From the NCBI GenBank assembly GCA_023898565.1, contig CP060228.1, positions 25,448 to 89,447 of the forward strand: a stretch of DNA of 64,000 bases, read 5' to 3'. This DNA is from Candidatus Nomurabacteria bacterium (GTDB taxonomy: Bacteria > Patescibacteriota > Minisyncoccia > Phycocordibacterales > UBA918). This document shows positions 16,089 to 32,285 of the stretch, piece after piece; within the stretch, counting starts at the first letter, position 1; each line of letters opens with the position of its first letter. The translations under genes and the position numbers were made by a program. Under the pieces are notes generated by a model. The model did no database searches and was not told where the DNA came from. It saw only the letters and a program-made list of their open reading frames with translations.

Positions 16089-16125
16089 TTAGTTCTCCTT
16101 CAGGTTCAATAACAAACTAAATAAA

Positions 16126-16360: not shown

Positions 16361-16407
16361 TTCGTTCGAGACGAAAGATTGGCTTCCCCGTCCCGCCAAA
16401 GTGGCGA

Positions 16408-16731: not shown

Positions 16732-16762
16732 TTGCGCCTCCTAAGACGTTGAATTCAAATCG

Positions 16763-16791
16763 AATGATAGCACGTATAACTTGCTATGTCA
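16763..16791 (-). promoter_or_regulatory. sigma70-like promoter (TTGACA, 17-nt spacer, TATCAT) for the 16408-16731 gene
   Basis: Minus-sense sequence ttgacatagcaagttatacgtgctatcat, immediately downstream of repeat B. Confidence 0.45.
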
Positions 16792-16795
16792 AGTA

Positions 16796-16887
16796 ATGCT
16801 CCGCCTGTTGGATGAGTTTCGAACATTGGACTGGATAAGTATAGAAAAGGATTTGCTGTATTGTGATCTGACAAAATGAAAACCGCC
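16796..16887 (-). repeat. Repeat copy B
   Basis: tgctccgcctgttggatgagtttcgaacattggactgg...caaaatgaaaaccgccc, closely similar to copy A. Confidence 0.6.
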
Positions 16888-16911
16888 CTCCAACGGTTCT
16901 CGTTGTGGGCG
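16868..16911 (-). terminator. rho-independent terminator of the 16914-17417 gene
   Basis: ccgccc..caacg..cgttg..gggcgg nested stem followed by TTTTCATTTTG on the minus strand. Confidence 0.6.
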
Positions 16912-16913
16912 GT

Positions 16914-17417
16914 TCAGAGCAGTGGCGTTTTTGAATATTCACCACCATCTCCGATACGTCCTCGTGAAATTTCTTGAAGCTTGAGTTGATCACCTTCGGA
17001 ATTGACTCCGAAGAATGAAACATCTCCTGGGCCAAGTAGAAGCCGCACGGGTCCACGAACCTTGATTCGTGATACACCTGCCACATCGTGAGCGAGCCAA
17101 CCAATGTGCCATTCCTGGTCAACATGGGTGGGTTGCAGAACGACGTAATCCTTCCATCCTCCAAGAAGAGGGATATGAAAGAATGGCATCTTAAGCCAAA
17201 AGCGTGCTCCAGCAGATTTGTTCCCTTCGCAGAACACTTGCATATCATCCTTCAGGTGTGCAACCTGACCAGATTTCAACTTAGTGTTGTTCCAGCGATG
17301 GGTTTGCTGAGGAGTTTCTCTGAAAGTTCCTGAGATGATGTACATAATGGGAAGCATTAGCACATCAGCAATACGTTCCAACCATCCAAGAGGTTGGACG
17401 TGGATTTTGTTCAACAC
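16914..17417 (-). CDS. Hypothetical protein (GTG start after RBS aggagg)
   Basis: 167-aa ORF with host-like GC content. No family recognised. Confidence 0.45.
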   Translation of the reverse strand: MLNKIHVQPLGWLERIADVLMLPIMYIISGTFRETPQQTHRWNNTKLKSGQVAHLKDDMQVFCEGNKSAGARFWLKMPFFHIPLLGGWKDYVVLQPTHVDQEWHIGWLAHDVAGVSRIKVRGPVRLLLGPGDVSFFGVNSEGDQLKLQEISRGRIGDGGEYSKTPLL

Positions 17418-17451
17418 GACATACCTCCTGAAGGTTGTTTAGACTGGTTGT

Positions 17452-17480
17452 ATAATAAAACAGTATTTATACTGTGTCAA
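17452..17480 (-). promoter_or_regulatory. sigma70-like promoter (TTGACA, 17-nt spacer, TATTAT) for the 16914-17417 gene
   Basis: Minus-sense sequence ttgacacagtataaatactgttttattat. Confidence 0.45.
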
Positions 17481-17484
17481 GTGA

Positions 17485-17555
17485 TGCTCGCCTGGCGGGA
17501 TGCTTTCCGAAGCTATGATTGGCACAATTGCTTTGTTTCTGTTGAAAGTGACATT
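17485..17555 (-). repeat. Repeat copy C (more diverged), at the left boundary of the AT-rich island
   Basis: tgctcgcctggcgggatgctttccgaagc...ttgctttgtttctgttgaaagtgaca aligns with copies A and B. Confidence 0.45.
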
Positions 17556-17758
17556 AGAGAGATCAATAGATTAGTCGCATTGGTCTAGACCGTTTCCCTT
17601 CTCAACAATTTCAACTAAACGCAGTAATTTAGACGCTTTTTCATACGCCACATCTCGCTCTAAAGTTTCACCGTAATGCTTTTGATAGAGCTCAATAAAT
17701 TGATCTAAGTGCTCGTTAGATATTTTTGCCAAAACTATTTGATACAAAAACTCATGCT

Positions 17759-17947
17759 TTACGCATGAATTTTTTCTGCTTTATTTGATATAGTCTCCTG
17801 ATCTTCCTGCGCTCTTTTTAAAGCGCTGTTGTAGACTCGTTTGCGTTCTCGTGACTTCGTTTCAATAAAAAACTTGTACACAGGGTCAGCTGACGTCTCT
17901 GGACGCTTATAGAATAACCCTTTTATAGTTGCGACTAGGTGTGTCAT
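17759..17947 (-). CDS. Small protein (62 aa) translationally coupled downstream of the zeta-toxin-like kinase
   Basis: 4-nt ATGA overlap with the upstream gene. Basic and charged composition. Confidence 0.4.
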   Translation of the reverse strand: MTHLVATIKGLFYKRPETSADPVYKFFIETKSRERKRVYNSALKRAQEDQETISNKAEKIHA

Positions 17948-18648
17948 ATCAAACTCTCAATCTCATCTTTACTGTACTTTTTTGGCAGGTATGTGTCAAG
18001 ATTATCGATGTTGAATGTAATTTTATACTGTTTGGTCTTAAGGTTTCTTTCAATAAGATCAACCCGAACACGATTACCGTACTCCCGCTTAATCGTAGCC
18101 ACATTGTCTCGCGCGGCAATAAATTGCTCAATGAAGTCTTCTCTTTGAATATTTCTACCGTCCACCTTTTCCCTGTCTTGAGTAAACTTCCAAGCAATCT
18201 CTGGAGGCTGAAGTACATACTCAATGAATATAGGTCTATCTTTACTGAGCGATAGATCAATATTGTTTCTGGCTTGATCAATTTTTGAAAAAGTACCATC
18301 TAACAAAAAACTATACGATTTACTCTTTACATAGTCATGTAATTTATTAACCCCAAGCGCAACAGCACCTTGGAACAAATGAGCTTTCCCCGGTTCATAC
18401 TGAGGGAGCCAAAGGCGAATTGCATCTGGATCAATCTGAACAATCTTATCTTCTGCTCCCATAATCTCATTGATCAGCCGAGTCGAGAACTCAGTCTTTC
18501 CTGCACCCGGAGATCCAGCCATGAAAATTGATACTGGTCTTCCAACAGGAGTAACCTTACCCACAAAATGATCAACAAGCTCCTTTTGATGCTTCTTGAC
18601 GTGTTCTATTGCTTCAGCAGAAAGATTGTTCTCCTCTGGGCTAGTCAT
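17944..18648 (-). CDS. Zeta-toxin family P-loop kinase (PezT/zeta-like, AAA_33)
   Basis: Walker A FMAGSPGAGKTEFS in the zeta-toxin G(S/Q)PG(A/S)GKT form, LLDGTF, size about 230 aa. Confidence 0.65.
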   Translation of the reverse strand: MTSPEENNLSAEAIEHVKKHQKELVDHFVGKVTPVGRPVSIFMAGSPGAGKTEFSTRLINEIMGAEDKIVQIDPDAIRLWLPQYEPGKAHLFQGAVALGVNKLHDYVKSKSYSFLLDGTFSKIDQARNNIDLSLSKDRPIFIEYVLQPPEIAWKFTQDREKVDGRNIQREDFIEQFIAARDNVATIKREYGNRVRVDLIERNLKTKQYKITFNIDNLDTYLPKKYSKDEIESLI

Positions 18649-21600
18649 GAGTTCTCAATAGTAGCAATCTCCTCGGGGGTCAGGTCATAGAGCTTGTAAA
18701 CTAACTCGTCAGCTTCATTCAAATACTTTTCTGCCGGAATGTTTTGCGTAGTTGCTTTAACTATCTCTTCATAACACACTTTTAGCTTATCAATGCTCAC
18801 GGGATCATGATCTAAACTTGGTAATGGCATATCTCTCAAGTGTCTTGGGTAAAAATGCAATCCATTTGACAACAGTTCACTGAAAAACCAGCTAAGTAAT
18901 TTTGAGTTCAGAATTACAGTTACCGCTTTCATATCATACTTTTGTGACAACTTGATCCGTTCCTGACTTAATTTTCCTTTGACTTGGGAGTAGGTTAAGT
19001 GTTCTAACAAGTGATATGGCACAGCATTAATAAGAGCGTCGTTATTGTAATAACCAACATCGTCATACACCGCTTGGATACCAGTCCTTCCAACAACGTT
19101 TTTCACAACGATCTTGTGACTTTCAAACAACTCCGGGAAACAGGGGGCTTTATGTTTGCTTGGTTGATAGTCTAGATACAGCTTTTTCTTTACCACATAC
19201 CTCTCGAAGTTCTTCCCCTCCAAGTACTGCTTATATCCGTCTGCATAAACATCGTGTATAAAGTCACCCTTACCAATTTTGAGTTTTGTGTTATGTATCT
19301 CTGCCCCCTTTGATACATAAAATGCATTTTCAAACTTGATCGTTGATTTAATGATCTTTTGGATTATCTGGACCTTGCCGTCATCTAAATCAAGTTTGAA
19401 ATTGTAATCTGGATGTATTTTAAAAACCTCCTTGCTAACAGTACTGAATGGTAACGAGTATAGATTGGGTAATTTTTTCGTCTTGTGGACATACGCTTCA
19501 AACTCACCTCCTCCTTCAGCATCATCGTCAGCATTAGATATAATACTTATCTGTGTGTCCACTGTAGCAGAGTCAAACACTTGATGGGCTGAGAAGTCTA
19601 GTAATCTTAATATTCTCTTTCCAAGCAAAAGTGCCCTTAATTGCTTACCGTACGATTGCGCAAGCCACTTGTTACTTGTTATATACGATATGATGCCATT
19701 TACTGCCAAAAGGCCAAAAGCTCGCTCATAGAAAAGAACGTATAGGTCATAATGACCTTTCGCTGTAGTGTATATATTTTGATATTTATCTTTCTGTTCT
19801 GGCTTTATTTTCCAAATACTAACGTATGGTGGGTTCCCTATAACTACATCAAACTTAGCTTCCACATCATGCATAAGCAACTGGTCATAGAAGCTGGCAG
19901 GATGCTCATTACTGAACGGATCATAAGTATGAAGCTGGTCGTTAAGCTGTGAGCCAAACATAGTCCCTTGTTTACGAAGAGTTGAGTATTTTGTCTCAAG
20001 CTTTTCACGTTGCTTAGGAGTTGCCTTAAAATACTCTTTCTTGATCTCTAACAAGGTCTCATATTTACCACCATCATCCAAAGCCGCTTCTTCACTCAGA
20101 GGTAAAAGTGTATTGGCACAGACGAATTTAAACTCTAGGTTTGGCAAGGTGTCCACACCACCATTTGGTTTCTTTTCAACATACTCTTGATCAACCACAA
20201 GAGCAAGAAAACTTCGAAGTCGAGCGATCTCAATAGCAAGTGGCTCGATGTCTACTCCGTAAATGTTACGCTCCATAATACCAAGCTTGGTCCGATACGG
20301 ATCAAAACGAGCATCGAGTCGTTCGTATATCTGGACCAGAAGATGCAGCATACCAATTGGAAAAGCCCCAGACCCACAAGCAGGATCAAGCACTTTCATA
20401 CCATCCAGCGCCTTTACAATCTTCTCTCGCAGCACAGGCTCTACCACGTCCCGCTTACTGTTTGTTCCTGACTTTGCCCAATCACTATCAGGAGTATCAA
20501 GCAATCTATCTATAGAGTTTTTAGCCTTATCTCCAGCCTCTAGTGCAGTACACAAGTATGCCCTGACACTCTCTCGACACATATAAGCCACAATCTCTCT
20601 TGGTGTATAGAAGGCACCTTTCGCTTTTCGAGCCTGCTCTCCTGTTTCTTCATTAATCTCAGCTAACAAGTTTTCAAAGATACGTCCGAGCATTTCAGGA
20701 TCAATCGCAATTTGCTCATAGTCAGGAGTTGACTCATCTGTTGTGAAATTAAACTCGCTGAAATGTTCATAGAGATTAACAAAAAAACCCTTTGGGAAAG
20801 GAATGTCACTTCCCCTCCAATCATCTGGGCGATCTTCAAAGAGTCCTCCGTTTAAGTACGGTGTCTTAAGGTCAGGATGCGGACGCTCACGATCATTCTG
20901 TGGAGTATTTAAAACACCAAAGAAGAGCAGCTCGAGTTTTTCCTTATAGTACGAACTGGCATCCGTGTGTGTAGTATCAAAATAATTGACGTCTCTCGAG
21001 ATAAAACCTTTTTTGTCTAGAAACCAACAAAAGAGCAAACGACCGTGTAGACGATTAGCAAAATGGCGAGCTTCGTCAGAACTTTTACCACCCTCCTCTA
21101 GATGAGAGACCAGATGTTTAAAACTGTTGGCAATACCCTTATAAAAAGCTTCGTTAATGCTTTTTAGCTTGAAACTATCCCAAATAGTTAGATGGAGGGC
21201 TTCACGACCCAAATTGGCTACTCCTTCCCATTTGGAGAAGATGTCTTTTTGCGTATTTGAGAGCTGATCTTTCAGTTCAACAATACGAAGAGACTTATTG
21301 TTAGACAATACTATCAGCAACGCATCATTTTCTGGAGTTAAGAAAAAGTCCACTCCTATCTTCGAAGCAGGGTCCTGTCTTGTAAATAAGGCGTCTTCAT
21401 AGTTTGGCGTAAAATGCACCGCGCCAGACACGTAGAGCTTTGACTTCTTCTTAAGTGCATACAACTTTGCTTCGAGAGGACCTTCTTTTGTGTCATTAAG
21501 GGCAAAGCATGCACGATTACTCTTGAACTTAGGATGAGCCTGAAACCAATGATCATAACGCTCGGCATTGGGCAATTTAAGTGCTGTAAGTAGTACATAA

Positions 21601-21749
21601 TCACTACTTGAGGGGTCATCTGTCTTAACTCCATTCACGTCAGCCAACATCAATACCTCACGAGCGACTCCCAATCCAGCCTCTATGGTTCTTTCGCTAC
21701 TTAATTTACTTAGCGCAGCATCAATTTTTTCAAAAGTATTATTTTGCAT
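18645..21749 (-). CDS. gamma-class N6-adenine DNA methyltransferase of Type IIG / MmeI- or PglX-like architecture (1034 aa)
   Basis: Motif X GAFYTPREIV, motif I VLDPACGSGAFPIGML, YGVDIEPLAIEIARL, motif IV VIGNPPYVSIWK. Includes an N-terminal ~350-aa region with a possible D...ExK nuclease-like segment (VDFFL...IVELK) and a C-terminal ~400-aa TRD-like region. Confidence 0.8.
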   Translation of the reverse strand: MQNNTFEKIDAALSKLSSERTIEAGLGVAREVLMLADVNGVKTDDPSSSDYVLLTALKLPNAERYDHWFQAHPKFKSNRACFALNDTKEGPLEAKLYALKKKSKLYVSGAVHFTPNYEDALFTRQDPASKIGVDFFLTPENDALLIVLSNNKSLRIVELKDQLSNTQKDIFSKWEGVANLGREALHLTIWDSFKLKSINEAFYKGIANSFKHLVSHLEEGGKSSDEARHFANRLHGRLLFCWFLDKKGFISRDVNYFDTTHTDASSYYKEKLELLFFGVLNTPQNDRERPHPDLKTPYLNGGLFEDRPDDWRGSDIPFPKGFFVNLYEHFSEFNFTTDESTPDYEQIAIDPEMLGRIFENLLAEINEETGEQARKAKGAFYTPREIVAYMCRESVRAYLCTALEAGDKAKNSIDRLLDTPDSDWAKSGTNSKRDVVEPVLREKIVKALDGMKVLDPACGSGAFPIGMLHLLVQIYERLDARFDPYRTKLGIMERNIYGVDIEPLAIEIARLRSFLALVVDQEYVEKKPNGGVDTLPNLEFKFVCANTLLPLSEEAALDDGGKYETLLEIKKEYFKATPKQREKLETKYSTLRKQGTMFGSQLNDQLHTYDPFSNEHPASFYDQLLMHDVEAKFDVVIGNPPYVSIWKIKPEQKDKYQNIYTTAKGHYDLYVLFYERAFGLLAVNGIISYITSNKWLAQSYGKQLRALLLGKRILRLLDFSAHQVFDSATVDTQISIISNADDDAEGGGEFEAYVHKTKKLPNLYSLPFSTVSKEVFKIHPDYNFKLDLDDGKVQIIQKIIKSTIKFENAFYVSKGAEIHNTKLKIGKGDFIHDVYADGYKQYLEGKNFERYVVKKKLYLDYQPSKHKAPCFPELFESHKIVVKNVVGRTGIQAVYDDVGYYNNDALINAVPYHLLEHLTYSQVKGKLSQERIKLSQKYDMKAVTVILNSKLLSWFFSELLSNGLHFYPRHLRDMPLPSLDHDPVSIDKLKVCYEEIVKATTQNIPAEKYLNEADELVYKLYDLTPEEIATIENS

Positions 21750-24700
21750 AAAATAATAATGCTTCAGAAGACTCTACCGTTAGGTCTTCAGGTGTATGAG
21801 CAGCAGATGACTGTTCTTCATACGCCTCCTTCAAAGCGTTAATTGTTTGAGGCAGCAGCTGACCACTTTCCTTAATGTCTCGATTTGCAGCTGTAAACAA
21901 CTTATTCCATTTTGTCTTAGATTGGATCGTCATAATGTTCTGAACAACTGACTGGAACTGCAAACCAGGCAAAACACGAGCCAGCTCATCAAGCACCTTA
22001 ACTTGGGATGGTTTGAGCTTACCTGGGGTTGATACTGAAACAGCTTCATTTGAAGCCTGTGCTTCTACCAGCCGACGTACAGCTCCCCTGTCTGCAGTAA
22101 TAGTATCTATCTGACGGCTGTTTTCTTCACTAGTTGTACGCAGATATGTAAGGGCCTCTAGCGTCTCAACCGGATCTGACACGTCACCATCTGATGCCAC
22201 AAAAATGTTTGCACGCAGCTCGTCAGTACCATTTTGCGTGTATACTTCGGTAAGAGAAAGTACTGTCGGGCAATCATGATCATTTCGTGCATGGCTAGGA
22301 AAATAACCCCATTTACCTCGAGGTATACGTTCCATTTGTCGGAAGGCTTCTTCTGTTGCGTTTTTACTAAACGCCCTCAAGTCATTTACATACTCATCTT
22401 CAGACAAAAAGTCATCATCATCCTCCAAAGTTTCAGCATACTCAGTGGCTTTTTCAGAGTATAAGTTCTCGACGTACTCAATTGGGTTTTCTTTCTCCCC
22501 CAAGACGGACTGGTCAGTTCCTATGGAACGACGAATACGTTCGACTTTTCCTTCAAGACGTTTTACTAGTTTCAAATAAGCTTCTAGCTGTGCGGCAGGA
22601 TTTAGATTGTAGATCCAAACCTTTTCATGCGGAGAACCCAAACGATTAATACGGCCGTTACGCTGGATCATGCGGACCGGGTTCCAGTGGAGATCAAAGT
22701 TTATGATAATACCAGAGTCCTGCAAGTTTTGACCCTCAGAAAGTACATCTGTAGCAAATAGGTATTGCAACTCATCCTCCGGGGAGACTTCCGCTTTCTT
22801 TGCTCTAGGCGCAAACCTCTTAGTAAGATCTTCAATTTCTTTTATGTTAGCTCCTGAGATAAATGCCGCCTTCTTAGCAAAGTCCTCACCTAGAATAGTT
22901 GGCAATTTGTCCTGAAGATACGCAATCGTGTCTGCATAAAAACTAAAAACAAGCACCTTACCACCATTTAATTTTTCTTCCCGTAAACCATTTATCAAAG
23001 AAACAAATGCCTGGAGTTTATCGTCTTGTTCCTCAAGTAGTTTACAAACAGAGATGAGGGCTTCGATTATCTTTCGATCGCGATTAAGGTCTGTGCGGAT
23101 TGCTGGGATATTGAATACATTATCGTCTGCTTCAACATGATCAGTATCCAGCTCTACTGCTGCATCGGCCTCAACATCATCACCCTGATCCTTCACAATG
23201 TCATAAATTTGCTTGAAGGTAAGAATGTACCCCTTGGTGAGCCACTCTTCGAAGAGATCAATCTTACCGATGTATGCCTCTAGCGAACGACGTAATGCAT
23301 ACGGAGAAGACTCTAACCTCTTTAGGAGACTCACCCGCAGCATATTGTGGATACTAAGTGCACTCATTAACTTAAAACTCTCTCGCTCATTGAGGTCGTA
23401 TGACTTCACCACCTCAATGTCTTTAGCATAAAACTGATGCTTGTATGTCTCTGATCGATACGGAGTGAAGCCAAGAGTAAGAAGAGAGCGGAAGAGTGAC
23501 ACAAATGTGTCAGGAACTCCTTCTCCCTCTACTATTAGTGATTGGTCTCCTTTCACAATATCTAATGGATGCTGTGTTCTTTGGGTCACTTCCAGAAAAC
23601 GGTCGTGGTCAAGATTGGTCACCGACACTCCCTCGAAATGTTCTACACACTTTTGCAGAGTCTCATATACCACCCGATCTCGCTCACCACCATACTCGTA
23701 AGGAGAGGGTACAACCTCACTCTTAGGGAATGTTCGAAGCACACCATCGTTTCCTAACAGACCACCGAACTCTTTTTCAATACCCGCTCTAGTTGAACGC
23801 ACCAAAAACTGCCTCAACCCCTGTCTCATCACTCGATGTATCCGGTCCCAATCAGGCTCTTGGCTGTCTTTTTCTGACTTTTTTATCTCAGTTGAAAGTC
23901 GACTAACAGCATCGTAGAAGTCGATCACTTCATTTTTCTTGGTCGTTTTAAATACAACAGGAAATGAAGTCAGTTTCCCTTTTGCTGCAAGCTGGACCTG
24001 GTTAACAAAGTCTTCAAGCTGGTTATTAATTGGCGTAGCCGTCAACAGAAGCACCTTGCTGTCTGGATTGGCAGCCAGCCACTCTAGTATCTGCTGATGC
24101 CGTTTACTGGCGTTATTTCGAAGGTTGTGCGCTTCATCAATCACAAAGAGGTCTACAGGCGCATACTTATCAATCACACGAGCTTTCTCGATCGCATCGG
24201 GATTTTGCATCGATATCAACTCGTAACCGTTCACTAACCCATGATGATCAGCCAACTCTTCCCTCCACTGCGACTCCAGTCTCTTGGGAACGATTACATT
24301 GATACGCCGAAAACCTTGCTCGACATAATGCTTAATCACTGCCCCACCGGTGATAGTTTTACCAAGACCTACTGAGTCTGAAAGCATGGCCAAACCATGC
24401 TTTTCTAGCTTATTTATTAGTAATTGAGCATTTCGCTGTTGAAACGCATAGAGCACTTTTTCTACGTCGGCCGAGAGTTCAACATTATCAGCAATTTCTT
24501 CCGAATATAAAGTCAGTAGGGTTTTAATGTACATCTCGTATGGGCTGGGTGTGAGATCCCCAACCGGAGAAGTGCGGACCAGCTCAATAAATGCACCAGT
24601 CCAATCTTCTGTTTTTTCATCTGACCACATCTCATCAAACCATGATAAATGACCTGTTTCCTGCTCAGGACTATTAGGCTTATATGTGACTACACGGTAA

Positions 24701-25188
24701 TCAGTCTCAAGTGCGTTCAGTTCTGCGTTGTCTGTGAGGCCATTTCTCGTGAAGTTTGATGAGCCAATTATCCCCACCGCTTCTGGCGACTCATATGTAC
24801 CAAAGATATAGCATTTAGCATGCAAAAAACTCTTTCGATAGACACGAACTTGAACCTTCCCTTCATCAATCAAACTCTTCAGATGAAACACCACCTCTCG
24901 TAACTCTGGAGTTGGATCAATGCGTTGTAGATCCTGGAAAAAGTCCTCATCAGGATAATCAAGCTCAGGTTCCTCAATATCCTTTTTATTATCGCGCTTG
25001 AGTAACGGTTCTCTCCCTATGAGAATACGCACCTGTTTATAGTCTTTCAGAGCATCTATCACTAGTTTCATCCCCTCAATATCCCAATAACCAGTCGCAA
25101 TGGAAAGATGATCGTGCTGCTTACTTGCTTCAAGAAAAGCATCTAGCATTACGCGACGATTGTTATCAATGATATTTGGGAGTGACAT
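21739..25188 (-). CDS. Fusion protein: N-terminal single-HKD phospholipase-D-family nuclease domain plus SNF2/SF2 helicase (1149 aa)
   Basis: HKD motif SFLHAKCYIFG...IIGSSNFTRNG. SNF2 ATPase motifs DSVGLGKTITGG, LFVIDEAHNLRN, LLLTATPINNQLEDF. C-terminal helicase domain LFATDVLSEGQNLQD, HWNPVRMIQRNGRINRLGS. Confidence 0.8.
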   Translation of the reverse strand: MSLPNIIDNNRRVMLDAFLEASKQHDHLSIATGYWDIEGMKLVIDALKDYKQVRILIGREPLLKRDNKKDIEEPELDYPDEDFFQDLQRIDPTPELREVVFHLKSLIDEGKVQVRVYRKSFLHAKCYIFGTYESPEAVGIIGSSNFTRNGLTDNAELNALETDYRVVTYKPNSPEQETGHLSWFDEMWSDEKTEDWTGAFIELVRTSPVGDLTPSPYEMYIKTLLTLYSEEIADNVELSADVEKVLYAFQQRNAQLLINKLEKHGLAMLSDSVGLGKTITGGAVIKHYVEQGFRRINVIVPKRLESQWREELADHHGLVNGYELISMQNPDAIEKARVIDKYAPVDLFVIDEAHNLRNNASKRHQQILEWLAANPDSKVLLLTATPINNQLEDFVNQVQLAAKGKLTSFPVVFKTTKKNEVIDFYDAVSRLSTEIKKSEKDSQEPDWDRIHRVMRQGLRQFLVRSTRAGIEKEFGGLLGNDGVLRTFPKSEVVPSPYEYGGERDRVVYETLQKCVEHFEGVSVTNLDHDRFLEVTQRTQHPLDIVKGDQSLIVEGEGVPDTFVSLFRSLLTLGFTPYRSETYKHQFYAKDIEVVKSYDLNERESFKLMSALSIHNMLRVSLLKRLESSPYALRRSLEAYIGKIDLFEEWLTKGYILTFKQIYDIVKDQGDDVEADAAVELDTDHVEADDNVFNIPAIRTDLNRDRKIIEALISVCKLLEEQDDKLQAFVSLINGLREEKLNGGKVLVFSFYADTIAYLQDKLPTILGEDFAKKAAFISGANIKEIEDLTKRFAPRAKKAEVSPEDELQYLFATDVLSEGQNLQDSGIIINFDLHWNPVRMIQRNGRINRLGSPHEKVWIYNLNPAAQLEAYLKLVKRLEGKVERIRRSIGTDQSVLGEKENPIEYVENLYSEKATEYAETLEDDDDFLSEDEYVNDLRAFSKNATEEAFRQMERIPRGKWGYFPSHARNDHDCPTVLSLTEVYTQNGTDELRANIFVASDGDVSDPVETLEALTYLRTTSEENSRQIDTITADRGAVRRLVEAQASNEAVSVSTPGKLKPSQVKVLDELARVLPGLQFQSVVQNIMTIQSKTKWNKLFTAANRDIKESGQLLPQTINALKEAYEEQSSAAHTPEDLTVESSEALLFYAK

Positions 25189-25219
25189 AGCTAAAAGAGT
25201 ACCATTTTAAGGGGTGTTT

Positions 25220-25633
25220 TCAAATTAAAATGTCACGGGTTATCTCGACCAACTGGTTTGGATTGGACCTGAGATCAACTTCTATAAACTGCTGGTCTAA
25301 CTCCACGCTATCAAAACGGGCACGTTCTTCAGGAAAGATTTCATTATCAAACCAAATGAGGTCATAGTCCCAATCTATCCCTTCGGTTTTGTTTACATCC
25401 CAGACTGTGCCTTTAATGTCGTCAATAAGCCGGTGTATGTCAGGCGAAGTAACTCGCTTTACTATCTCCTGCGCTCTTGTCGGATCACCTTCTCTACAGT
25501 GAGTTGTAAGCCAATAAAGCTCATGTGTTTGTAAGGCCAAAATAAAGTCTTCAAGACCAGCTGCTGGTTTACCGTAATTTTCTGTTAAGTCCTCATGTAT
25601 AAGAGTACCGTCGATATCTAAGTAAACCTTCAT
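25220..25633 (-). CDS. Small HAD-superfamily-like hydrolase (137 aa)
   Basis: N-terminal LDIDGTL (DxDGT motif I). Abuts the FtsK-like gene. Confidence 0.4.
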   Translation of the reverse strand: MKVYLDIDGTLIHEDLTENYGKPAAGLEDFILALQTHELYWLTTHCREGDPTRAQEIVKRVTSPDIHRLIDDIKGTVWDVNKTEGIDWDYDLIWFDNEIFPEERARFDSVELDQQFIEVDLRSNPNQLVEITRDILI

Positions 25634-25634
25634 G

Positions 25635-27068
25635 TTATTCAGGGTCCACTAATACATTCCGTGGCTTCGATCCATCCTGTGGACCTATCACCCCACTATC
25701 CTCTAGAAGATCCAGCAATCGAGCCGCTCGGGAGTACCCAATACGTAAACTACGTTGTATATACGACGTAGAAGCTTTACCTGCCTTAATCACTGCCGCT
25801 TTAGCATCTTCATACAGATCATCTTCTTCTCCATCTCCACCCACCATGGCGTTGAATATCGCATCATTTCCGTTGTAATGATCGAAGTCTAAGGTGTCCA
25901 GTTCCCCTTCATCATACTTCTTCCAAACTTTGACCCGGTCGATGATCTCATCCTCTGAAATATAGAGTCCCTGAATGCGTTGTGGTCTGAAGTCTTCGGG
26001 AGATTGTAAGAGCATATCCCCCTCGCCTCGCAACTTCTCTGCTCCACCGACATCTAGAATGGTTCGTGAGTCCACCTGACAAGCCACCATCATAGCGATA
26101 CGAGCTGGGATATTGGCCTTAATAGATCCTGTAATAACACTGGTGGATGGTCGCTGGGTGGTCAAAATAAGGTGAATACCGACTGCTCTACTCATTTGTG
26201 CTAAGCGGACCACACAAGCTTCAAACTCGGCAGGATATGTCTGCATAATGTCATTGAGCTCGTCTACAATGATCAGAATAAATGGGAGGGCTTCAGGCAG
26301 CTCAGCACGATCCGCTTCCTTAGCTCCTGCTTTTTCCCAGCTTTCTTTAGCAGGCTGGTACACATCCTTGTGGTAGACAGAAATGTTCATTACTCCTTCT
26401 GCTTCCAGAATGTCATATCGCCGCTCCATCTCCTTTACCGCCCAGGAAAGCGCCTGGACAGCCTTCTTGGCCTGTGTAACAGGCTTAGTGAGCGAGTGTG
26501 GCAATCCATCATATAAAGTAAGCTCAACCAGCTTAGGATCAATGAACATAAAACGGACCTGCTCGGGTGTGTTCTTCTCAATCAGTGCGTTAATGAGTGA
26601 GTGAAGCAAGACAGACTTACCCGAACCAGTGGTCCCGGCAGCCAGGATGTGTGGCATCCGGGCAATGTTCATTAAGTGTCGATTACCAAACTCATCAATA
26701 CCGAGTGGCACCACTAGAGGGCCACTTTCTCTGAACTCTTCCCACTTGAGTGCATCGCTAAAGGGTATGGCTGGTAAGTCTTCCTTCTTAGGTACCGTTA
26801 TACCAACCAGCTTCTTGTTAGGGACCGGAGCCTGGATCTCTACGCCGTCATTACTTAGTTCATACCTGAGGTCCTCCACAAAGCTAGCGAAGGCTTTCAT
26901 CCGCATCGGCTTCTTTGGTTGAAGGTAGAAATGGTAACTACTAAACCCATCAACCGCCTCCACCACCTCAACTGGCACCTTAAACTCCTTAAACATGCTC
27001 ACAATGGTCTCTGCCATCTTCTTAACCACTTCCCTACTCTGAGCAAGGGGGGTATGCTTTTTTAACAT
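25635..27068 (-). CDS. FtsK/SpoIIIE-family DNA translocase lacking an N-terminal membrane anchor (TraB/Tra-like)
   Basis: Walker A LAAGTTGSGKSVLLHSL, Walker B ILIIVDELNDIM, C-terminal gamma winged-helix domain YEDAKAAVIKAGKASTSYIQRSLRIGYSRAARLLDLLEDSGVIGPQDGSKPRNVL. Confidence 0.8.
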   Translation of the reverse strand: MLKKHTPLAQSREVVKKMAETIVSMFKEFKVPVEVVEAVDGFSSYHFYLQPKKPMRMKAFASFVEDLRYELSNDGVEIQAPVPNKKLVGITVPKKEDLPAIPFSDALKWEEFRESGPLVVPLGIDEFGNRHLMNIARMPHILAAGTTGSGKSVLLHSLINALIEKNTPEQVRFMFIDPKLVELTLYDGLPHSLTKPVTQAKKAVQALSWAVKEMERRYDILEAEGVMNISVYHKDVYQPAKESWEKAGAKEADRAELPEALPFILIIVDELNDIMQTYPAEFEACVVRLAQMSRAVGIHLILTTQRPSTSVITGSIKANIPARIAMMVACQVDSRTILDVGGAEKLRGEGDMLLQSPEDFRPQRIQGLYISEDEIIDRVKVWKKYDEGELDTLDFDHYNGNDAIFNAMVGGDGEEDDLYEDAKAAVIKAGKASTSYIQRSLRIGYSRAARLLDLLEDSGVIGPQDGSKPRNVLVDPE

Positions 27069-27267
27069 ACCTTAACTTTACACCCAAAAGGTCCCTCACG
27101 CACAAAACTTATCCCCTACCAGTCAAACACCTAAAATAGGTTGATAAATAAGCCCAGAATGCTTAAATTAGCACATTTACATTTTTGCCCCTTGTCGTGG
27201 TACTAGACTTTATGCAAGCTGCTTGTACAGACACAACTTACTCACATTTATGTTGTAATTTAAAACA

Positions 27268-27807
27268 CTATTGATAGTGCATATCACCGTCTTCATCGTA
27301 CTCAAAAACACCATTTTCACAAAAAGGACAGGTGTCTCCACTCTCACAAAAGTCCTTATTGCCGCAATGTATGCACGACTCATCTGCTTTATATACAAAT
27401 TTCGGGACCAGATCATCCTTCTTGAACTCATCAGTAAGCAACACCTTGCGATGTTTGAAAAAGTAGTGATGTTGCTCCTCTGGACCAAGTATCCCCCTTT
27501 TTTCTAGATACGGTACAGCGTCATACCAAATGCCGACATCTTCAAGATCCTGCTCGCACACATACTCATAAGCCTTTAAGGCTTGGACCTGCTCCCACAG
27601 CTCGTCAAAGTCTGTTCTGAAGCGATACGTCTTTACATCTGTCTTGCAGTGCTTACAGATCTTTTCGGTAGAGAAAACGCCATCAAAAGGAGCTCTCCTC
27701 TCAAGAGATGCTAACTCCCCCTTCTCATTAAGCGCAATCGGGATGCCTGTCCCGGACCTTAGACAGTGCCCACAATTGTTGCAATAGCTGAATGATATGT
27801 ATCCCAT
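27268..27807 (-). CDS. Cysteine-rich hypothetical protein (multiple CxxC pairs)
   Basis: CNNCGHC...CKHC...CIHCGNKDFC...CPFC. Confidence 0.45.
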   Translation of the reverse strand: MGYISFSYCNNCGHCLRSGTGIPIALNEKGELASLERRAPFDGVFSTEKICKHCKTDVKTYRFRTDFDELWEQVQALKAYEYVCEQDLEDVGIWYDAVPYLEKRGILGPEEQHHYFFKHRKVLLTDEFKKDDLVPKFVYKADESCIHCGNKDFCESGDTCPFCENGVFEYDEDGDMHYQ

Positions 27808-27811
27808 ATCT

Positions 27812-28216
27812 TTACTTTTCTAGACGTAGTTTGAACTCTTCTTTTACCCGACCAGCTATCTCTGACTCCCACCCTTCAGCATTAGATAAAAAATACGCAA
27901 CAATTGACCTTGCGGAGTCAGACCCGTAGCTGTCAGCCATAGTCTCTATCTCCATCATCGCCGTCACATACGGGTAGGCACTTCGAGACACACTATCACC
28001 CCAATCCTCCATAATAATGTCCGCCAGTTGACTCAACGTTAGTTCTGAAAGATCTTGATTGTCGTACCAGTGCTCTGCTTTCCCATCAAAGAAATGTTGG
28101 CACGAGTCACACATCCACTGTTTCTGGACCTCATTGGATATATCCATGAGATCACACATGTCTTCTACACTCGTTGCCTCATTTCCACCACATTTGGGAC
28201 AGATCACTTTTGTCAT
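27812..28216 (-). CDS. Zinc-ribbon hypothetical protein
   Basis: MTKVICPKCGG...CDSC. Confidence 0.45.
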   Translation of the reverse strand: MTKVICPKCGGNEATSVEDMCDLMDISNEVQKQWMCDSCQHFFDGKAEHWYDNQDLSELTLSQLADIIMEDWGDSVSRSAYPYVTAMMEIETMADSYGSDSARSIVAYFLSNAEGWESEIAGRVKEEFKLRLEK

Positions 28217-28226
28217 ATCAAACCTC

Positions 28227-28619
28227 TTAAGTCCCAGAGACAGCGTCAAAGAAACTAATAACTAAACCAATCAACGCCCAAACCCCAATAAATATGAACA
28301 GGTATTTAAAAACTTTACTCTGAGTTCTAGGCTCATCAGATCCATTACCATCAACACTATTGCCTCCGTTTTTTGATTGTCTCTTTGGACCAATGTCTGG
28401 ATTATTACGCTTGATAGCTTCGACAATATCAATCGCAAAAAAGAAGCGTTGTAATAGGAGGGTTCCTATAACATATCCGAGCACCCCTAAAGGAAATATC
28501 TTACCGATAATAAAAATAGTGATCAACGCTACTACAGATGCCTGGAAGTTTCTATGCCGTTTTACCTCTTTGCCTATCTGCTCCTGGGTCTTAACCGGCT
28601 TTTCTTGCTGGTCTTTCAT
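28227..28619 (-). CDS. Small membrane protein, hypothetical
   Basis: Two TM segments with a Gly/Asn-rich loop. Confidence 0.4.
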   Translation of the reverse strand: MKDQQEKPVKTQEQIGKEVKRHRNFQASVVALITIFIIGKIFPLGVLGYVIGTLLLQRFFFAIDIVEAIKRNNPDIGPKRQSKNGGNSVDGNGSDEPRTQSKVFKYLFIFIGVWALIGLVISFFDAVSGT

Positions 28620-28836
28620 ATTAAAAAGTGACTAGTTTACTCTGGCAGCAGGCACAACAAAGCCCGCTACTAAGGAAAGCTCCTTACGGAAACTTCTACC
28701 AGCGTTTCCACTGGTAACGATAGACACGCCCTTAATAACGGGTTCTCTTGTGTCTATCGTTTTTCGACCATGCCGCTATCTCACGACTGCGGGTTAGGTC
28801 ATTGAAATATTTAGTTGTTCGAGTATTGTATCAGAA

Positions 28837-29583
28837 GTGACAAAAAACATCGAAACAGACAAAGTAAAAATAATAAAGGAGGCTGCAGAACTTCATCTGA
28901 ACCCCATTTTACGTGACAAAACATATCTTCTTCTAAAGACACTAAGCAGGGTCAGCAACCCAAGACTTTCACACCACAAAAAAGAGGTATCTGTTACAGA
29001 ACTCACTCATACGGAACTTTCAGAAGAGGACTTAGACAAAATTTTGCAGTTTATTGAAGACTGTTTAACACGAATAAGAACATTGGCCGACATTGGTTGG
29101 TCTGGAAAAAGTGTAATGGAAAGGCCATCATTTGGACCTAAATTTAAAGGACCGTATATCCAAGGCTCAAAAGTCGTACTCAATACTTTTTTCGATTATC
29201 ACCCCTTTATCTCTGCACTGTCTAACAGCACTGAAGAGGACGGCGCAAACAAACTAGCATCGACGCCCACAAACACACTTGTAGCAAGTAGAAGTCTTAA
29301 AGGTATTTACTTCAAGAATGAACCGGGGCTTATTGTGAAATACAAAATGCGCAGACTTAATCTGATCCTTCACTTATTCAAATACGGAGAAACAAAAACA
29401 TCTGATCTTACAAATGATTTGACGCCCGATGGAAGCGATAATGATTATGATGTTGAAGACGCTGTGAGACACATCAACAATAGGTTCATAGAAGAACTCA
29501 AATTGGAAGATAAATTGATTATCGGTGAGTGGGGTTCAGGGTACCGCATCAACGAAAAGTACAATACTGAAATTGCCGACTAA
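28837..29583 (+). CDS. Hypothetical protein (possible DNA-binding or replication/regulatory protein of the element)
   Basis: 248-aa AT-rich ORF. Tandem 11-bp repeats lie just downstream. Confidence 0.4.
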   Translation: MTKNIETDKVKIIKEAAELHLNPILRDKTYLLLKTLSRVSNPRLSHHKKEVSVTELTHTELSEEDLDKILQFIEDCLTRIRTLADIGWSGKSVMERPSFGPKFKGPYIQGSKVVLNTFFDYHPFISALSNSTEEDGANKLASTPTNTLVASRSLKGIYFKNEPGLIVKYKMRRLNLILHLFKYGETKTSDLTNDLTPDGSDNDYDVEDAVRHINNRFIEELKLEDKLIIGEWGSGYRINEKYNTEIAD

Positions 29584-29689
29584 CTACTTTAAAACAGGGT
29601 CAAAACAGGGTCAGTCATCTTAAAAGAAGTGGAAAAGACTACAAAAAAGCCAGGTCATAACAGGACCAGGCTTTTGTTATTTTTGTGAC

Positions 29690-29857
29690 ATGGCTATTAA
29701 ACATGGCACCAAAGAGTCGTTTAGAGACATCGCAGCTAAAGAGTGTGGGCTAGAACTTAGTCCTTCTGAAGCAGCTGTTCTACTAAACGATCTCGTCAAG
29801 TATTATCGCCTACTTCATCAGCTTGACCAGAAGATCAAACAAGCTAGTGAAGGCTAA
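29690..29857 (+). CDS. Possible small protein (55 aa), not in the ORF track
   Basis: ATG at 29690 and TAA at 29855 in frame. MAIKHGTKESFRDIAAKECGLELSPSEAAVLLNDLVKYYRLLHQLDQKIKQASEG. Confidence 0.25.
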   Translation: MAIKHGTKESFRDIAAKECGLELSPSEAAVLLNDLVKYYRLLHQLDQKIKQASEG

Positions 29858-30115
29858 TGCACATTGACCAGAGGTGGTAAGTGGCTCCTCTCTAAAAAAG
29901 TAACTTGGAGGTGGTGTGCAGATGCCAATCCCCCGCTCTGACTTTAGGGTTGTCAACGGGGGACCTCATCTGCACGTCACTAATCTTCCTGCTTCTATCA
30001 AAGTTAGAGGGTAAATAGAAGATAAGGTTGGTCAATAGAACATAAACCTCCCCTTTTACATAGTATGAGGGGAACAAAACCCTAATTTAAAAATGTAACG
30101 TTTTATACAAAAACT

Positions 30116-30349
30116 ATGGTACGATCTCGATTAATAAGGGTTCACGAGGATATACACCAGAAACTAAAGGGCATGGCCATTGAAAAGAAGATAACCTGCG
30201 CTGCCCTCGTCGAACAAATGCTTTTATCATACTTCCGCTGGAACAATATTGACTTCAAGTTTAAACCTAAGAAAAAACTTAGTGCTCAACAGGAAATTAA
30301 TAAACAGACAAAGAAAGACCTAAAAATAATTGATAAACTAAATAAGTAA
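30116..30349 (+). CDS. Ribbon-helix-helix (CopG/Arc-like) DNA-binding protein, possible recombination directionality or regulatory factor
   Basis: SRLIRVHEDIHQKLKGMAIEKKITCAALVEQML beta-alpha-alpha pattern. Ends 2 nt before the recombinase start. Confidence 0.45.
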   Translation: MVRSRLIRVHEDIHQKLKGMAIEKKITCAALVEQMLLSYFRWNNIDFKFKPKKKLSAQQEINKQTKKDLKIIDKLNK

Positions 30350-30351
30350 CT

Positions 30352-31935
30352 ATGGAAAAAGCAGTAATCTACGCACGAGTATCATCAAAAGAACAAGAAG
30401 AAACTGGCTACTCCTTACCAGCCCAGCTGGACCTACTTCGTAAATACGCTGAGAAAAATGGTTTTAAGGTCTGCAAAGAGTTTTCTATTGCTGAGTCTGC
30501 GACGAGTCAAAGCGGTCGTAAGACCTTCCAAGCAATGCTTGCGTACACCAACCAGAAGAAAATACACACGATCATTTGTGAAAAGATCGACCGACTCACT
30601 AGGACCCCTAAAGATGCAGGTGTAATTGACGACTGGGTGCGCTCAACTGAAACCCGGACCGTCCACTTTGCCAAAGAAGGCTTCATTCTCAGTAAGCAAA
30701 CCAAAGCGCACGAGAACCTCGTTTGGAACATGAAAGTAGCTATCGCTAAGTTCTACACCGACAATCTATCTGAGGAGGTTCGTAAAGGTCAGGCTGCCAA
30801 GATTGCTGCCGGCCACCTCCCCACCAAACCACCGCTTGGATACCGAACCGTCGGGGAGCAAGGTAAGAAGGTGCACGTTATTGACGACAACACAGCCCCG
30901 CTGGTTAAGAAAATGTTTGAGATGTATGCCACCGGGAACTTCTCTGTCGTCGAACTAACAAAACGAATTAATCTGATAGGTCTCCGTAATCGAAACGGGA
31001 ACAAGCTGAGCAAGACACGAGTTCATGACTTTCTCTCAGACCCATTCTATTACGGAGACATGCGTTGGAACGACAAGATATTCAAAGGAGCTCATGAACC
31101 ACTGATCACTCTGGAGCTCTTCAACAAGGTTCAGGAGAAGCTAGGTCGAGGTACTGCTAGCCCATACTACCGAACTCATCCACTGCTATACAAAGCGAAG
31201 GTCACTTGTGCCACTTGCGGCTTCTTGGTGAGTTGGGAAAGACAGAAAGGACACGTCTATGGCTCTTGTAAGCATTGTAAGAGCCCTCTAGGAGCATCAT
31301 CCAAGTACTTACGAGAAGAAGAGTTAGACAAGAAGATCATCGAGAAAGTGCTAAAAGTAGCACCTAAGAACCAAAAGGTGCTCGACATCCTCAACCAAGC
31401 GTTAAAAGAGGACGCTGAGGAGGAAATACATGCTTACGAAACCAGTAAACGCCAGCTGGAAGAAAACCTACGCCGTGGCGACCTAAGAGTCGACACAGCT
31501 TACACGGACCGCTTAGATGGACGTATCGGCACAGAACGATATGACGGTATTAAAGCTGAATGGGATGCAGAAAGAAAAGCGATCTTGAACGAACTGACTC
31601 GTCTTAGCAACGATAAGTCAAAGTATTACGACGCTGGTTTCTCAATCCATGTCTTGGCTACAAAAACCCGAGAGATCTACGAGAGTCAACACGTTACAGA
31701 CGATGATCGTCGCCTGCTGTTAAGTTACGCCTTCAACAAAGTCACACTAGAAAGAGGCAACATCGAAGTTGAGTACACTCCAGCGTTCGAATATCTGCAA
31801 AAATGGGTACCTGCAGTAAACCAGAGTTTCGAACTTGCAAATAGTGGCTCTAATGAAAGACAAAAGGTGCCTTTCGGCACCTCTCATCCTACTTTGCTCC
31901 GCGGGCAGGATTCGAACCTGCGACCAATCGGTTAA
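30352..31935 (+). CDS. Large serine recombinase (resolvase/invertase N-terminal catalytic domain plus recombinase and zinc-ribbon domains). The 3' end overlaps tRNA-Asn.
   Basis: AVIYARVSSKEQ catalytic Ser motif. Central recombinase domain. CATCG...CKHC zinc ribbon. Coiled-coil tail. Confidence 0.85.
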   Translation: MEKAVIYARVSSKEQEETGYSLPAQLDLLRKYAEKNGFKVCKEFSIAESATSQSGRKTFQAMLAYTNQKKIHTIICEKIDRLTRTPKDAGVIDDWVRSTETRTVHFAKEGFILSKQTKAHENLVWNMKVAIAKFYTDNLSEEVRKGQAAKIAAGHLPTKPPLGYRTVGEQGKKVHVIDDNTAPLVKKMFEMYATGNFSVVELTKRINLIGLRNRNGNKLSKTRVHDFLSDPFYYGDMRWNDKIFKGAHEPLITLELFNKVQEKLGRGTASPYYRTHPLLYKAKVTCATCGFLVSWERQKGHVYGSCKHCKSPLGASSKYLREEELDKKIIEKVLKVAPKNQKVLDILNQALKEDAEEEIHAYETSKRQLEENLRRGDLRVDTAYTDRLDGRIGTERYDGIKAEWDAERKAILNELTRLSNDKSKYYDAGFSIHVLATKTREIYESQHVTDDDRRLLLSYAFNKVTLERGNIEVEYTPAFEYLQKWVPAVNQSFELANSGSNERQKVPFGTSHPTLLRGQDSNLRPIG

Positions 31936-31968
31936 CAGCCGACTGCTCTACCGCTGAGCTACCGCGGA
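31897..31968 (-). tRNA. tRNA-Asn (anticodon GTT)
   Basis: Minus-sense TCCGCGG TA GCTC AGCGGTA GAGC A GTCGG CTGTTAA CCGAT TGGTC GCAGG TTCGAAT CCTGC CCGCGGA G cloverleaf. CCA is not encoded. Confidence 0.85.
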
Positions 31969-32070
31969 ATATATGTGTAGCTCTACCTGAATCAATCAGG
32001 TATGGGTATTTTACAGATTTTTTAAGAAGATACAACCTCTTTATGAATACAGTGCTACACTATAGAACGT

Positions 32071-32235
32071 ATGGAAAAACGAATGATTTGGCTCATGGCC
32101 GGAATTGGCGGATGGATTGGTGGATATATACCGACACTCTGGGGCGCCGGTGGCTTTAGCATATCGACCATTATTTTTAATGGCCTTGGTGCCCTCTTGG
32201 GGATTTGGGTTGGATTTAAAATGACACACTACTAG
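32071..32235 (+). CDS. Small membrane protein (54 aa) of the GlsB/YeaQ/YmgE transglycosylase-associated type. Not in the ORF track.
   Basis: MEKRMIWLMAGIGGWIGGYIPTLWGAGGFSISTIIFNGLGALLGIWVGFKMTHY, with Gly-zipper TM helices. Confidence 0.5.
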   Translation: MEKRMIWLMAGIGGWIGGYIPTLWGAGGFSISTIIFNGLGALLGIWVGFKMTHY

Positions 32236-32285
32236 GAGCCCGCTTCCCTACTTGCCGAAGCAGTGAATATGGCTACTATGTAGCT

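Follow-up and report, generated by a model that had tools for sequence, protein, structure and literature searches.

A tRNA-Asn-associated integrative element in a Patescibacteria genome and its family of large serine recombinases

Islands and prophages that occupy tRNA genes are said to carry tyrosine integrases of the P4 type and similar enzymes, as Williams reportedly described in 2002. Among other mobile elements, SCCmec integrates with the CcrAB serine recombinases, whose target is the rlmH/orfX 3' end, and pSAM2 and SLP1 are actinomycete integrative and conjugative elements (AICE). Serine recombinases are an enzyme class hardly known to target tRNA genes. Here we describe an element from a Candidatus Nomurabacteria bacterium (GenBank assembly GCA_023898565.1, contig CP060228.1, positions 25,448 to 89,447) in which the gene of a large serine recombinase (LSR) overlaps the 3' end of a tRNA-Asn gene. 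All coordinates are positions in this whole stretch of 64,000 nt, which we call the window. The segment 17490-31894 is very probably a recently active integrative element, which sits at the tRNA-Asn gene's 3' end in this Patescibacteria genome and is moved by its own LSR.

The large serine integrases of phages offer the closest comparison at the level of the enzyme. The Listeria A118/LI integrase, phiC31 and Bxb1 resemble the window LSR in having resolvase, recombinase and zinc-ribbon domains. As in the window element, the phage systems have short attachment (att) sites with few common central bases and a symmetric attP, and as in the window family the motif of the zinc-ribbon domain lies 5 bp nearer to the centre in attB (PMC3783163). 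The phage enzymes target protein-coding or intergenic sites, whereas the window LSR targets a tRNA 3' end with the T-loop as motif. Also unlike the phage integrases, the window element has its attP inside the integrase open reading frame (ORF), the hosts are Patescibacteria, and the elements are small islands and not phages. The tRNA islands with tyrosine integrases have other features in common with the window element, namely integration at the 3' end that keeps the tRNA functional, an integrase gene beside the tRNA, and serial or tandem occupation of the site. They differ in enzyme family and chemistry; in the window only a 5-bp core is common to both ends and there is no long repeat that rebuilds the tRNA. 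SCCmec is alike in its variable cargo and in that a conserved housekeeping gene receives the insertion at its 3' end, through a large serine recombinase, and stays active. The window element has a single recombinase instead of a ccrA/ccrB pair, a tRNA instead of a protein-coding target, and a host from an unrelated phylum. Mageeney et al. 2020 (PMC7192596) surveyed 297 elements with serine integrases and found t(m)RNA genes in use by 14 of them; the authors stated that such use 'has not been reported previously' and that it needed proof. In our literature search, neither the recombinase family described here nor any case of a serine recombinase at a Patescibacteria tRNA gene came up.

The following features define the element and its target.

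17455-17525, plus strand: attL, with the core at 17485-17489; host sequence GTCAAGTGA, TGCTC, then the P' arm of the element, GCCTGGCGGGATGCTTTCCGAAGC, with a T-loop-like motif at +16/17
17490-17588, plus strand: displaced 3' coding end of the recombinase gene; the excised (attP) ORF would be 548 aa long and end ...LLAWRDAFRSYDWHNCFVSVESDIREINRLVALV
30352-31935, plus strand: LSR, 527 aa in the integrated form, with Resolvase, Recombinase and weak Zn_ribbon_recom domains and the motif YARVSSKEQ
31860-31925, plus strand: attR, with the core at 31895-31899; P arm with the hairpin GGTGCC-TTTC-GGCACC, situated within the recombinase ORF
31896-31968, minus strand: host tRNA-Asn(GTT) (Rfam 31897-31968, 73.6 bits); the 3' strand of the acceptor and the T arm form the B' half-site, with TTCGAAC at +12 from the core

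The element is discrete and 14,405-14,410 bp long (window 17485/17490 to 31894/31899, that is, 14,405 bp plus one copy of the core). Its GC content is 42.7%, compared to 48.6% across the remaining window, and none of 40 equal-sized segments outside the element falls below 47.7%. The change is abrupt and coincides with the element junctions; it is not the gradual shift, unrelated to gene content, that would have spoken against an island. A preliminary description, made from the sequence alone, had noted the drop in composition and proposed an AT-rich integrated element of about 14 kb that abuts tRNA-Asn. This observation is confirmed apart from the exact ends. The left end had been placed at 17580, about 90 nt from the actual 17485-17490, and the right end at 31968, one tRNA length away from the actual 31894-31899; the tRNA, the only one in the window, belongs to the host. 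That host is not an actinobacterium: the flanking genes match metagenome-assembled genomes (MAGs) of Patescibacteria, and every relative of the flanking gene fpg is from a MAG of this group, under the labels Paceibacteria, Kaiserbacteria, Nomurabacteria or 'Saccharibacteria'.

Evidence for integration comes from contigs without the element. No empty site was obtained from 71 GTDB species genomes that had been retrieved with fpg, because synteny left of the tRNA is not conserved in them. Exact-protein look-ups in metagenome contigs provided empty sites from three samples (L085, L086 and L087), which run from window position ..17489 straight into 31895..; the tRNA-Asn is intact in L085 and L087 according to ARAGORN. 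Furthermore, at least 12 assemblies have contig ends or branch points within 17485-17521. The comparison with genomes lacking the insertion, which the preliminary description had suggested, thus defines the empty site and rules out that the same gene order occurs without empty-site variants. The att sites read as follows.

attB (empty-site contigs): ..GTCAAGTGA-TGCTC-CGCGGGCAGGATTCGAACC..
attL (window): ..GTCAAGTGA-TGCTC-GCCTGGCGGGATGCTTTCCGAAGC..
attR (window): ..CATCCTACTT-TGCTC-CGCGGGCAGGATTCGAACC..
attP (deduced): ..CATCCTACTT TGCTC GCCTGGCGGGATGCTTTCCGAAGC..

The junction k-mers are CATCCTACTTTGCTCGCCTGGCGGGATGC for the attP form and GTCAAGTGATGCTCCGCGGGCAGGATTCG for the attB form. Only the 5-bp core TGCTC (17485-17489 and 31895-31899) is common to attL, attR and the deduced attP, and the body of the tRNA is therefore host DNA. 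The core corresponds to tRNA positions 71-75, which are the last two bases of the acceptor stem, the discriminator and two trailer bases. The junctions are base-exact at the core in every variant compared. A repeat of the tRNA 3' segment had been anticipated near 17.5 kb; what is present there is the 5-bp TGCTC and an imperfect tRNA-like arm, not a long repeat, and the 41-nt 3' segment of the tRNA has no second copy within 3 mismatches. An Islander-type island with a tyrosine integrase is ruled out, as the sole recombinase is of the serine type and a direct repeat of the tRNA 3' end is missing. The reading of the locus as a tRNA-targeting serine-recombinase element is supported; the use of the tRNA 3' end as att site is borne out by the empty sites and holds across the family.

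Several comparisons point to recent mobility. In another strain (L001/L088) the element recurs with a single mismatch over 11,543 bp. Identity to the window is 99.53% in the right flank (~10 kb with 38 mismatches and 3 gaps) and 98.9% in the left; between the two strains, divergence in the flanks is about 50-fold that of the element. The left junction in this strain joins the element to window position 16270 and not to 17484. In a different species (L073, with ~70% DNA identity in fpg) a recombinase with 97% identity (91% at the DNA level) is found at the same tRNA-Asn-fpg position, in an element that carries other cargo, which points to spread between species. A third arrangement is seen in L082 (900-1040), L083 and L084, contigs from other samples in which the site is taken by yet another element, one with a 201-aa gene, and the left flank is as in the window up to ..17489; this element is preceded by a 45-nt 'solo' scar, which consists only of a P'-type arm and a P-type arm. 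From these cases it follows that the site has been occupied repeatedly and independently.

It could be argued that the locus is a fixed fossil with an inactive LSR, and that presence and absence arose by homologous recombination of the flanks or by deletion between short repeats containing TGCTC. The decayed appearance of two small modules left of the element (modules A and B, see below), the fact that the L088 strain is without exactly the segment between two TGCTC cores, and the failure to detect a circular form would agree with this explanation; we nevertheless consider it very unlikely given the intact LSR ORF with all invariant residues, the low divergence of the element relative to its flanks, the near-identical LSR at the same tRNA in a different species and the base-exact junctions. 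Recent activity of the element has to be weighed against other observations as well. The sequences used for comparison are metagenome assemblies and not isolates. An excised circle was not found, and the exact 548-aa protein of the attP form is absent from a collection of 15 billion proteins. A recombination directionality factor, a replication gene, a relaxase and a capsid gene were not identified in the element by Pfam or PHROGs. Finally, the B arm of the host is wholly different in the two integration contexts (the end of module B versus the flank at 16265); this is unexpected, since serine integrases normally read both half-sites.

The recombinase itself has the domains of an LSR together with the invariant catalytic and Cys residues. 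It begins with MEKAVIYARVSSKEQ and has a catalytic domain (PF00239, E 2.4e-24, residues 4-155), in which R9, V10 and S11 of YARVSS are invariant across 29 homologues, followed by PF07508 (Recombinase, E 1.6e-16, residues 180-264). The Pfam match to the zinc ribbon is below threshold (18.2 vs 25.3 bits); the sequence reads CxxC...CxxC, with C286 and C289 invariant and C306 nearly so. Residues ~340-420 are charged and appear to be helical; they may correspond to the coiled-coil insert by which LSRs control directionality. In the NCBI annotation (USN89249.1) the protein is 401 aa long, starts at Met127 and is without the catalytic domain; the full 527-aa ORF is open in the window.

The preliminary description had recognized the YARVSSKEQ motif and an overlap of the last ~13 codons with the 3' part of the minus-strand tRNA-Asn(GTT), and both are correct. 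The overlap is 40 nt long, equal to 13 codons plus the stop. The last 12 codons (RGQDSNLRPIG plus stop) are antisense to tRNA-Asn, and the crossover core is contained in codons 515-516 (LL). Integration into the tRNA hence appears to exchange the end of the recombinase for antisense-tRNA codons. A comparable situation reportedly exists in the integration-dependent immunity of cluster G/N mycobacteriophages, which Broussard and colleagues are said to have described in 2013. There, as in the window, attP lies in a coding region and integration alters the encoded C-terminus. In those phages the repressor is affected, the integrase is a tyrosine enzyme and a degradation tag is removed; in the window it would be the recombinase itself that is altered.

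We then compared the recombinase with its homologues, of which there are at least 2,448 at E<=1e-10; almost all of those with a named source are from Patescibacteria. By their C-termini the proteins can be sorted into three sets: antisense-tRNA peptides (such as ..LLRGQDSNLRPIG, with variants), proteins that stop just past LLRG, and element-type ends with the pattern LAW.D.FRT..W...LL.LV. Tails similar to the displaced end in the window also occur in homologues that adjoin no tRNA. The reason for element-type tails inside chromosomes is seen in Tara Oceans contigs L182-L185. There two recombinase elements stand in tandem, the first of which is closely related to the window element and has a recombinase that reads on into the P' arm of the neighbour. 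In these contigs (L182 1-16989 and L183-L185) the first element has the FtsK-...-recombinase backbone, and a Type I restriction-modification system (hsdR, hsdS, hsdM) replaces the methylase/SNF2/zeta cargo described below.

An antisense tRNA overlaps the 3' end of the LSR gene in 46 of 90 homologue loci. These tRNAs comprise 35 for Asn, 7 for Gln, 1 for Glu, 1 for Asp and 2 that our script scored as adjoining tRNA-Met although the overlapping gene is tRNA-Asp. At 20 more of the 90 loci the contig ends at the 3' end of the LSR gene, and 23 have another neighbour. Members of this large Patescibacteria recombinase family thus normally target a tRNA 3' end, and the window element belongs to a widespread and apparently undescribed family of tRNA-targeting serine-recombinase islands. 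In some loci (L183 11500-11620, L109, L115, L127, L149, L157, L161, L168 and L176) a perfect acceptor strand and T arm lie right behind the recombinase gene; these neighbours continue with GGTTACAC... and not with the tRNA-Asn sequence GGTTAACAG, and ARAGORN finds no tRNA there. They may be interrupted or unusual tRNAs or a tRNA remnant. Other recombinases are also found at this tRNA. One related genome (L040) has two tRNA-Asn copies 3.6 kb apart beside fpg (6038-6112 and 9652-9726), a recombinase with only 26% identity to that of the window overlaps tRNA-Asn in L024 (1410-2985), and one with only 25% identity adjoins tRNA-Asn in L015 (8096-9802). Because of these cases tRNA-Asn may be a hotspot for several recombinase lineages.

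The position of the T-loop motif distinguishes the target from the element. TTCGAAC begins +12 after the core in the tRNA (B' arm); its start is at +17 in modules A and B, the scar of L082 and L183's second element. The P' arm of the window has the variant TTCCGAA beginning at +16/17, and the P arm inside the recombinase ORF has (T)GCCGAA at the mirror position; in the element arms the T-loop-like motif is thus 5 bp further from the core than in the tRNA. A survey of 56 distinct junctions beside homologous recombinases gave the same picture for the family. The core is TGCTC in 45 of these. The motif NGAA(C/G) is at +14, the tRNA position, in 50 junctions and at +19, the P'-arm position, in the other 6, as where another element comes next, and it occurs nowhere else. 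The P-arm motif is present at +19/20 in 42 of the 56. For the Listeria integrase, likewise, the zinc-ribbon-domain motif of attP lies 5 bp more distant from the centre than that of attB (Rutherford et al. 2013, PMC3783163). Judged by sequence, the geometry of the window family matches the known attP/attB geometry of large serine integrases, and we infer that the recombinase reads the T-loop of the tRNA with its zinc-ribbon domain. On the minus strand the P-arm hairpin with its T-run forms a terminator-like structure directly after the tRNA, so that the element replaces the tRNA trailer.

Two short modules precede the element.

16266-16796, no strand: module A, 531 bp; starts with TGCTC and a tRNA-like arm (TTCGAAC at +17); contains a Zn-ribbon gene at 16408-16731 (minus strand)
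16797-17484, no strand: module B, 688 bp; same end structure as module A; contains a 167-aa gene at 16914-17417 (minus strand)

Each of them has one small gene with its own promoter-like sequence, and their left ends are 78% alike over ~90 nt. The right end of module B is the B arm of the attB that was used in the window strain. The empty-site contigs have both modules, and the L088 strain has neither. No P-arm motif was found at their right ends, and a loose regular-expression search of the window for remnant att sites gave only background apart from 16266, 16797 and 17485. Module A is probably the remnant of an earlier integration; together the modules may be leftovers of earlier integrations or small non-autonomous units. 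In this respect the locus again resembles SCCmec, with its tandem composite arrays and recombinase-less remnants (compare modules A/B and the L182 pair).

The remaining genes of the element are arranged as follows.

17571-17947, minus strand: two small ORFs (58 aa and 62 aa), 3' of the zeta-toxin gene
17944-18648, minus strand: zeta-toxin-family kinase gene (PF06414, E 7e-32); its start overlaps the methylase stop by 4 nt
18645-21749, minus strand: Type IIG-like (Eco57I/MmeI-type) N6-adenine methyltransferase/specificity protein, 1034 aa
21739-25188, minus strand: HKD(phospholipase D-type)-nuclease-SNF2 helicase, 1149 aa
25220-25633, minus strand: 137-aa protein, 95% identical in the related element L073
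25635-27068, minus strand: soluble FtsK alpha-beta-gamma translocase, 477 aa (FtsK_alpha, FtsK_SpoIIIE, FtsK_gamma), no hydrophobic segment
27268-28619, minus strand: three small genes, whose products have 179 aa (11 Cys), 145 aa (zinc ribbon) and 130 aa (two hydrophobic segments)
28676-28800, minus strand: LOOT RNA (Rfam RF03000), 69.9 bits (Rfam gathering threshold 46.4), full-length match over all 121 model positions
28837-29583, plus strand: 248-aa protein with a C-terminal OmpR/ToxR-type winged-helix domain
29690-29857, plus strand: 55-aa ORF, called in the identical element of contig L001
30116-30349, plus strand: 77-aa ribbon-helix-helix (RHH)/Arc-like protein with weak Arc-like PHROG matches only (E ~1e-3)

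The small Cys-rich and hypothetical proteins and the defence-like operon of the preliminary description are found in the minus-strand operon. The genes for the HKD-SNF2 protein, the methylase and the zeta toxin (17944-25188, minus strand) overlap end to start, which suggests that they form one translationally coupled defence unit. The HKD-SNF2 protein is the probable restriction partner of the methylase; the same methylase/SNF2 pair occurs in elements L126, L129 and L144.

The FtsK-like protein bears on the question of how the element might pass from cell to cell. The protein is free of a membrane anchor and has a gamma domain, as proposed before; a TraB-like nature is not favoured by the comparison with host proteins. 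It is 57-59% identical to the 730-745-aa FtsK of related bacteria with four transmembrane segments (4TM) and is a member of a clade of anchor-less copies of 463-500 aa. It therefore appears to be a paralogue of the host FtsK that has a gamma domain, and not a TraB-type protein. The FtsK-...-LSR backbone is conserved in L182-L185, and L124 has a HerA-like ATPase (HerA/FtsK superfamily) in a comparable position. The FtsK-like gene is absent from 85 more distant loci of the family. FtsK together with the small cargo proteins was rejected as a family-wide backbone, since it is kept only in the closest relatives.

The AICE resemble the window element as small elements at a tRNA gene with an FtsK-family translocase and no relaxase. 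They differ from it in that no Rep was found in the window element, the translocase here appears to be a paralogue of the host FtsK with a gamma domain and not TraB, the integrase is a serine and not a tyrosine enzyme, and the host is not actinobacterial. An AICE-like transfer, as in the preliminary description, would require that the soluble FtsK is anchored by the adjoining small membrane proteins and pumps the excised double-stranded DNA into a neighbouring cell. We regard this as possible, though doubtful. The complete alpha-beta-gamma motor lies in an operon with the 130-aa protein that bears two hydrophobic segments, the Tara Oceans relatives retain the backbone and have other defence cargo, the ATPase in L124 is similarly placed, and there is no gene for a relaxase or a type IV secretion system. 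These points are opposed by the close relationship of the translocase to the host 4TM FtsK, which speaks against the TraB lineage, by its absence from the distant loci, and by the lack of a Rep gene: no ORF of the element has a Pfam or PHROG match to Rep (RepSA, RepAM, prim-pol), a search that could miss distant homologues. Nor was an array of clt-like 8-mers noticed when repeats were sought in 28600-30360 and, with long seeds, in 15500-33000. In view of the paralogy with the host protein and the patchy presence in the family, actinomycete-style transfer is an analogy.

Alternatively, the element could be a phage satellite or a defective provirus that is moved by a helper phage through hijacked packaging and not by its own FtsK translocation. 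We judge this to be unlikely. L073, the closest relative with other cargo, encodes a GP3_package (small-terminase-like) protein, most family members are without the FtsK-like gene, PHROGs files FtsK/SpoIIIE-like proteins under phage morons, and a few homologues are on IMG/VR viral contigs. However, in 2.9 million viral contigs relatives are encoded on no more than 5, all at contig ends, and the elements are small (~5-15 kb) and dominated by defence cargo. Virion genes (capsid, portal, terminase) were not found in the window element by Pfam or PHROGs, and genes for capsid, portal, large terminase and tail were not found in the window element, L124 or L160. Because Rep, relaxase and virion genes were not found, both the AICE-like and the helper-phage models are kept as rivals.

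The plus-strand genes upstream of the recombinase encode candidates for control of the element. The RHH gene ends 2 nt before the recombinase start (30349 vs 30352), as first described; going by the weak PHROG matches, its identity as RHH is tentative. The protein is a candidate regulator or directionality factor. Two 16-nt direct repeats, 20 nt apart, are located upstream of this gene (30010-30045) and may be an operator. The 248-aa protein has no match in sequence searches of Pfam, PHROGs or PDB, and only 6 relatives among 1.84 billion representative proteins. Its structure model has a mean predicted local distance difference test (pLDDT) score of 74.8, and all top Foldseek matches are OmpR/ToxR winged helices with weak E-values; according to this model the protein is a putative regulator of the element.

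The LOOT RNA heads the minus-strand operon on its 5' side, and the gene of the winged-helix regulator runs divergently from it. It begins a few bases past a -10-like TAAATA, and a perfect 12-nt inverted repeat at 28716-28761 forms its long hairpin. To our knowledge LOOT RNA has had no assigned organism. Copies are also found in relatives: L073 (4064-4185), L102 (2576-2695), L103 (6707-6832), L107 (8327-8444), L110 (2641-2765), L124 (8379-8503) and L182 (8345-8462 and 14089-14203). A LOOT covariance model built in this analysis was used to search the recombinase-centred loci and fpg-centred control loci from Patescibacteria. Among the recombinase-centred loci (1.08 Mb) the model hit 32 copies, each of them on the side of the element; the control loci (1.09 Mb) gave 1 copy. 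From this difference LOOT appears to be a hallmark of the element family.

Together, these data can be combined in the following mechanism. The LSR would have recombined an attP, which its own gene harbours in the 3' end, with an attB at the very 3' terminus of tRNA-Asn, with a 2-bp crossover placed within the 5-bp TGCTC at tRNA positions 71-75. The acceptor strand and T arm of the tRNA would be bound as the B' half-site and the T-loop TTCGAAC would be the motif for the zinc-ribbon domain; both attP arms have this motif at a distance greater by 5 bp, a feature known from characterised serine integrases. As the sequence shows, a crossover at the last bases of the tRNA leaves it intact, and the element supplies a new trailer and a terminator hairpin. 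The integrated LSR ORF ends in 12 antisense-tRNA codons; after excision, or before another element, it has a 33-residue tail encoded by the element. The conserved core comprises the LSR, the RHH protein, the winged-helix regulator and the LOOT RNA; the soluble FtsK motor operon and a swappable defence cargo (IIG methylase, HKD-SNF2, zeta toxin) are further content. Repeated integrations at the same tRNA would have left tandem remnants such as modules A and B.

A broader proposal, which we put forward only tentatively and with some doubt, is that of a Patescibacteria-wide class of islands, characterized by the T-loop as recognition motif, an attP in the coding end of the enzyme, tandem stacking, and control by LOOT and the winged-helix protein. 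The architecture itself is well supported. In such a class the exchange of the ~33-residue tail for ~12 antisense-tRNA codons might serve as a sensor of the integrated versus the free state and might tune stability or directionality of the recombinase; the meaning of the tail and of LOOT is speculation.

The present results go beyond the preliminary description in the base-exact junctions with empty sites, in the T-loop att logic inside the recombinase gene, and in the LOOT-linked behaviour of the family. They answer the question raised by Mageeney et al. 2020 (PMC7192596) in that serine integrases use tRNA genes routinely in Patescibacteria. Serine integrases are the main tools for the insertion of large DNA, and their natural targets are idiosyncratic genes. 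A family that targets the acceptor stem and T arm of tRNAs, the most conserved few dozen bases in biology, offers many pairs of integrases and att sites. Its att rules can be read directly (core TGCTC, motif at +12 versus +17), and the family is a natural experiment on how attB is told from attP. The LOOT RNA gains a genomic home and a context, and the element provides a first anatomy of mobile defence islands in ultra-small, mostly uncultured bacteria.

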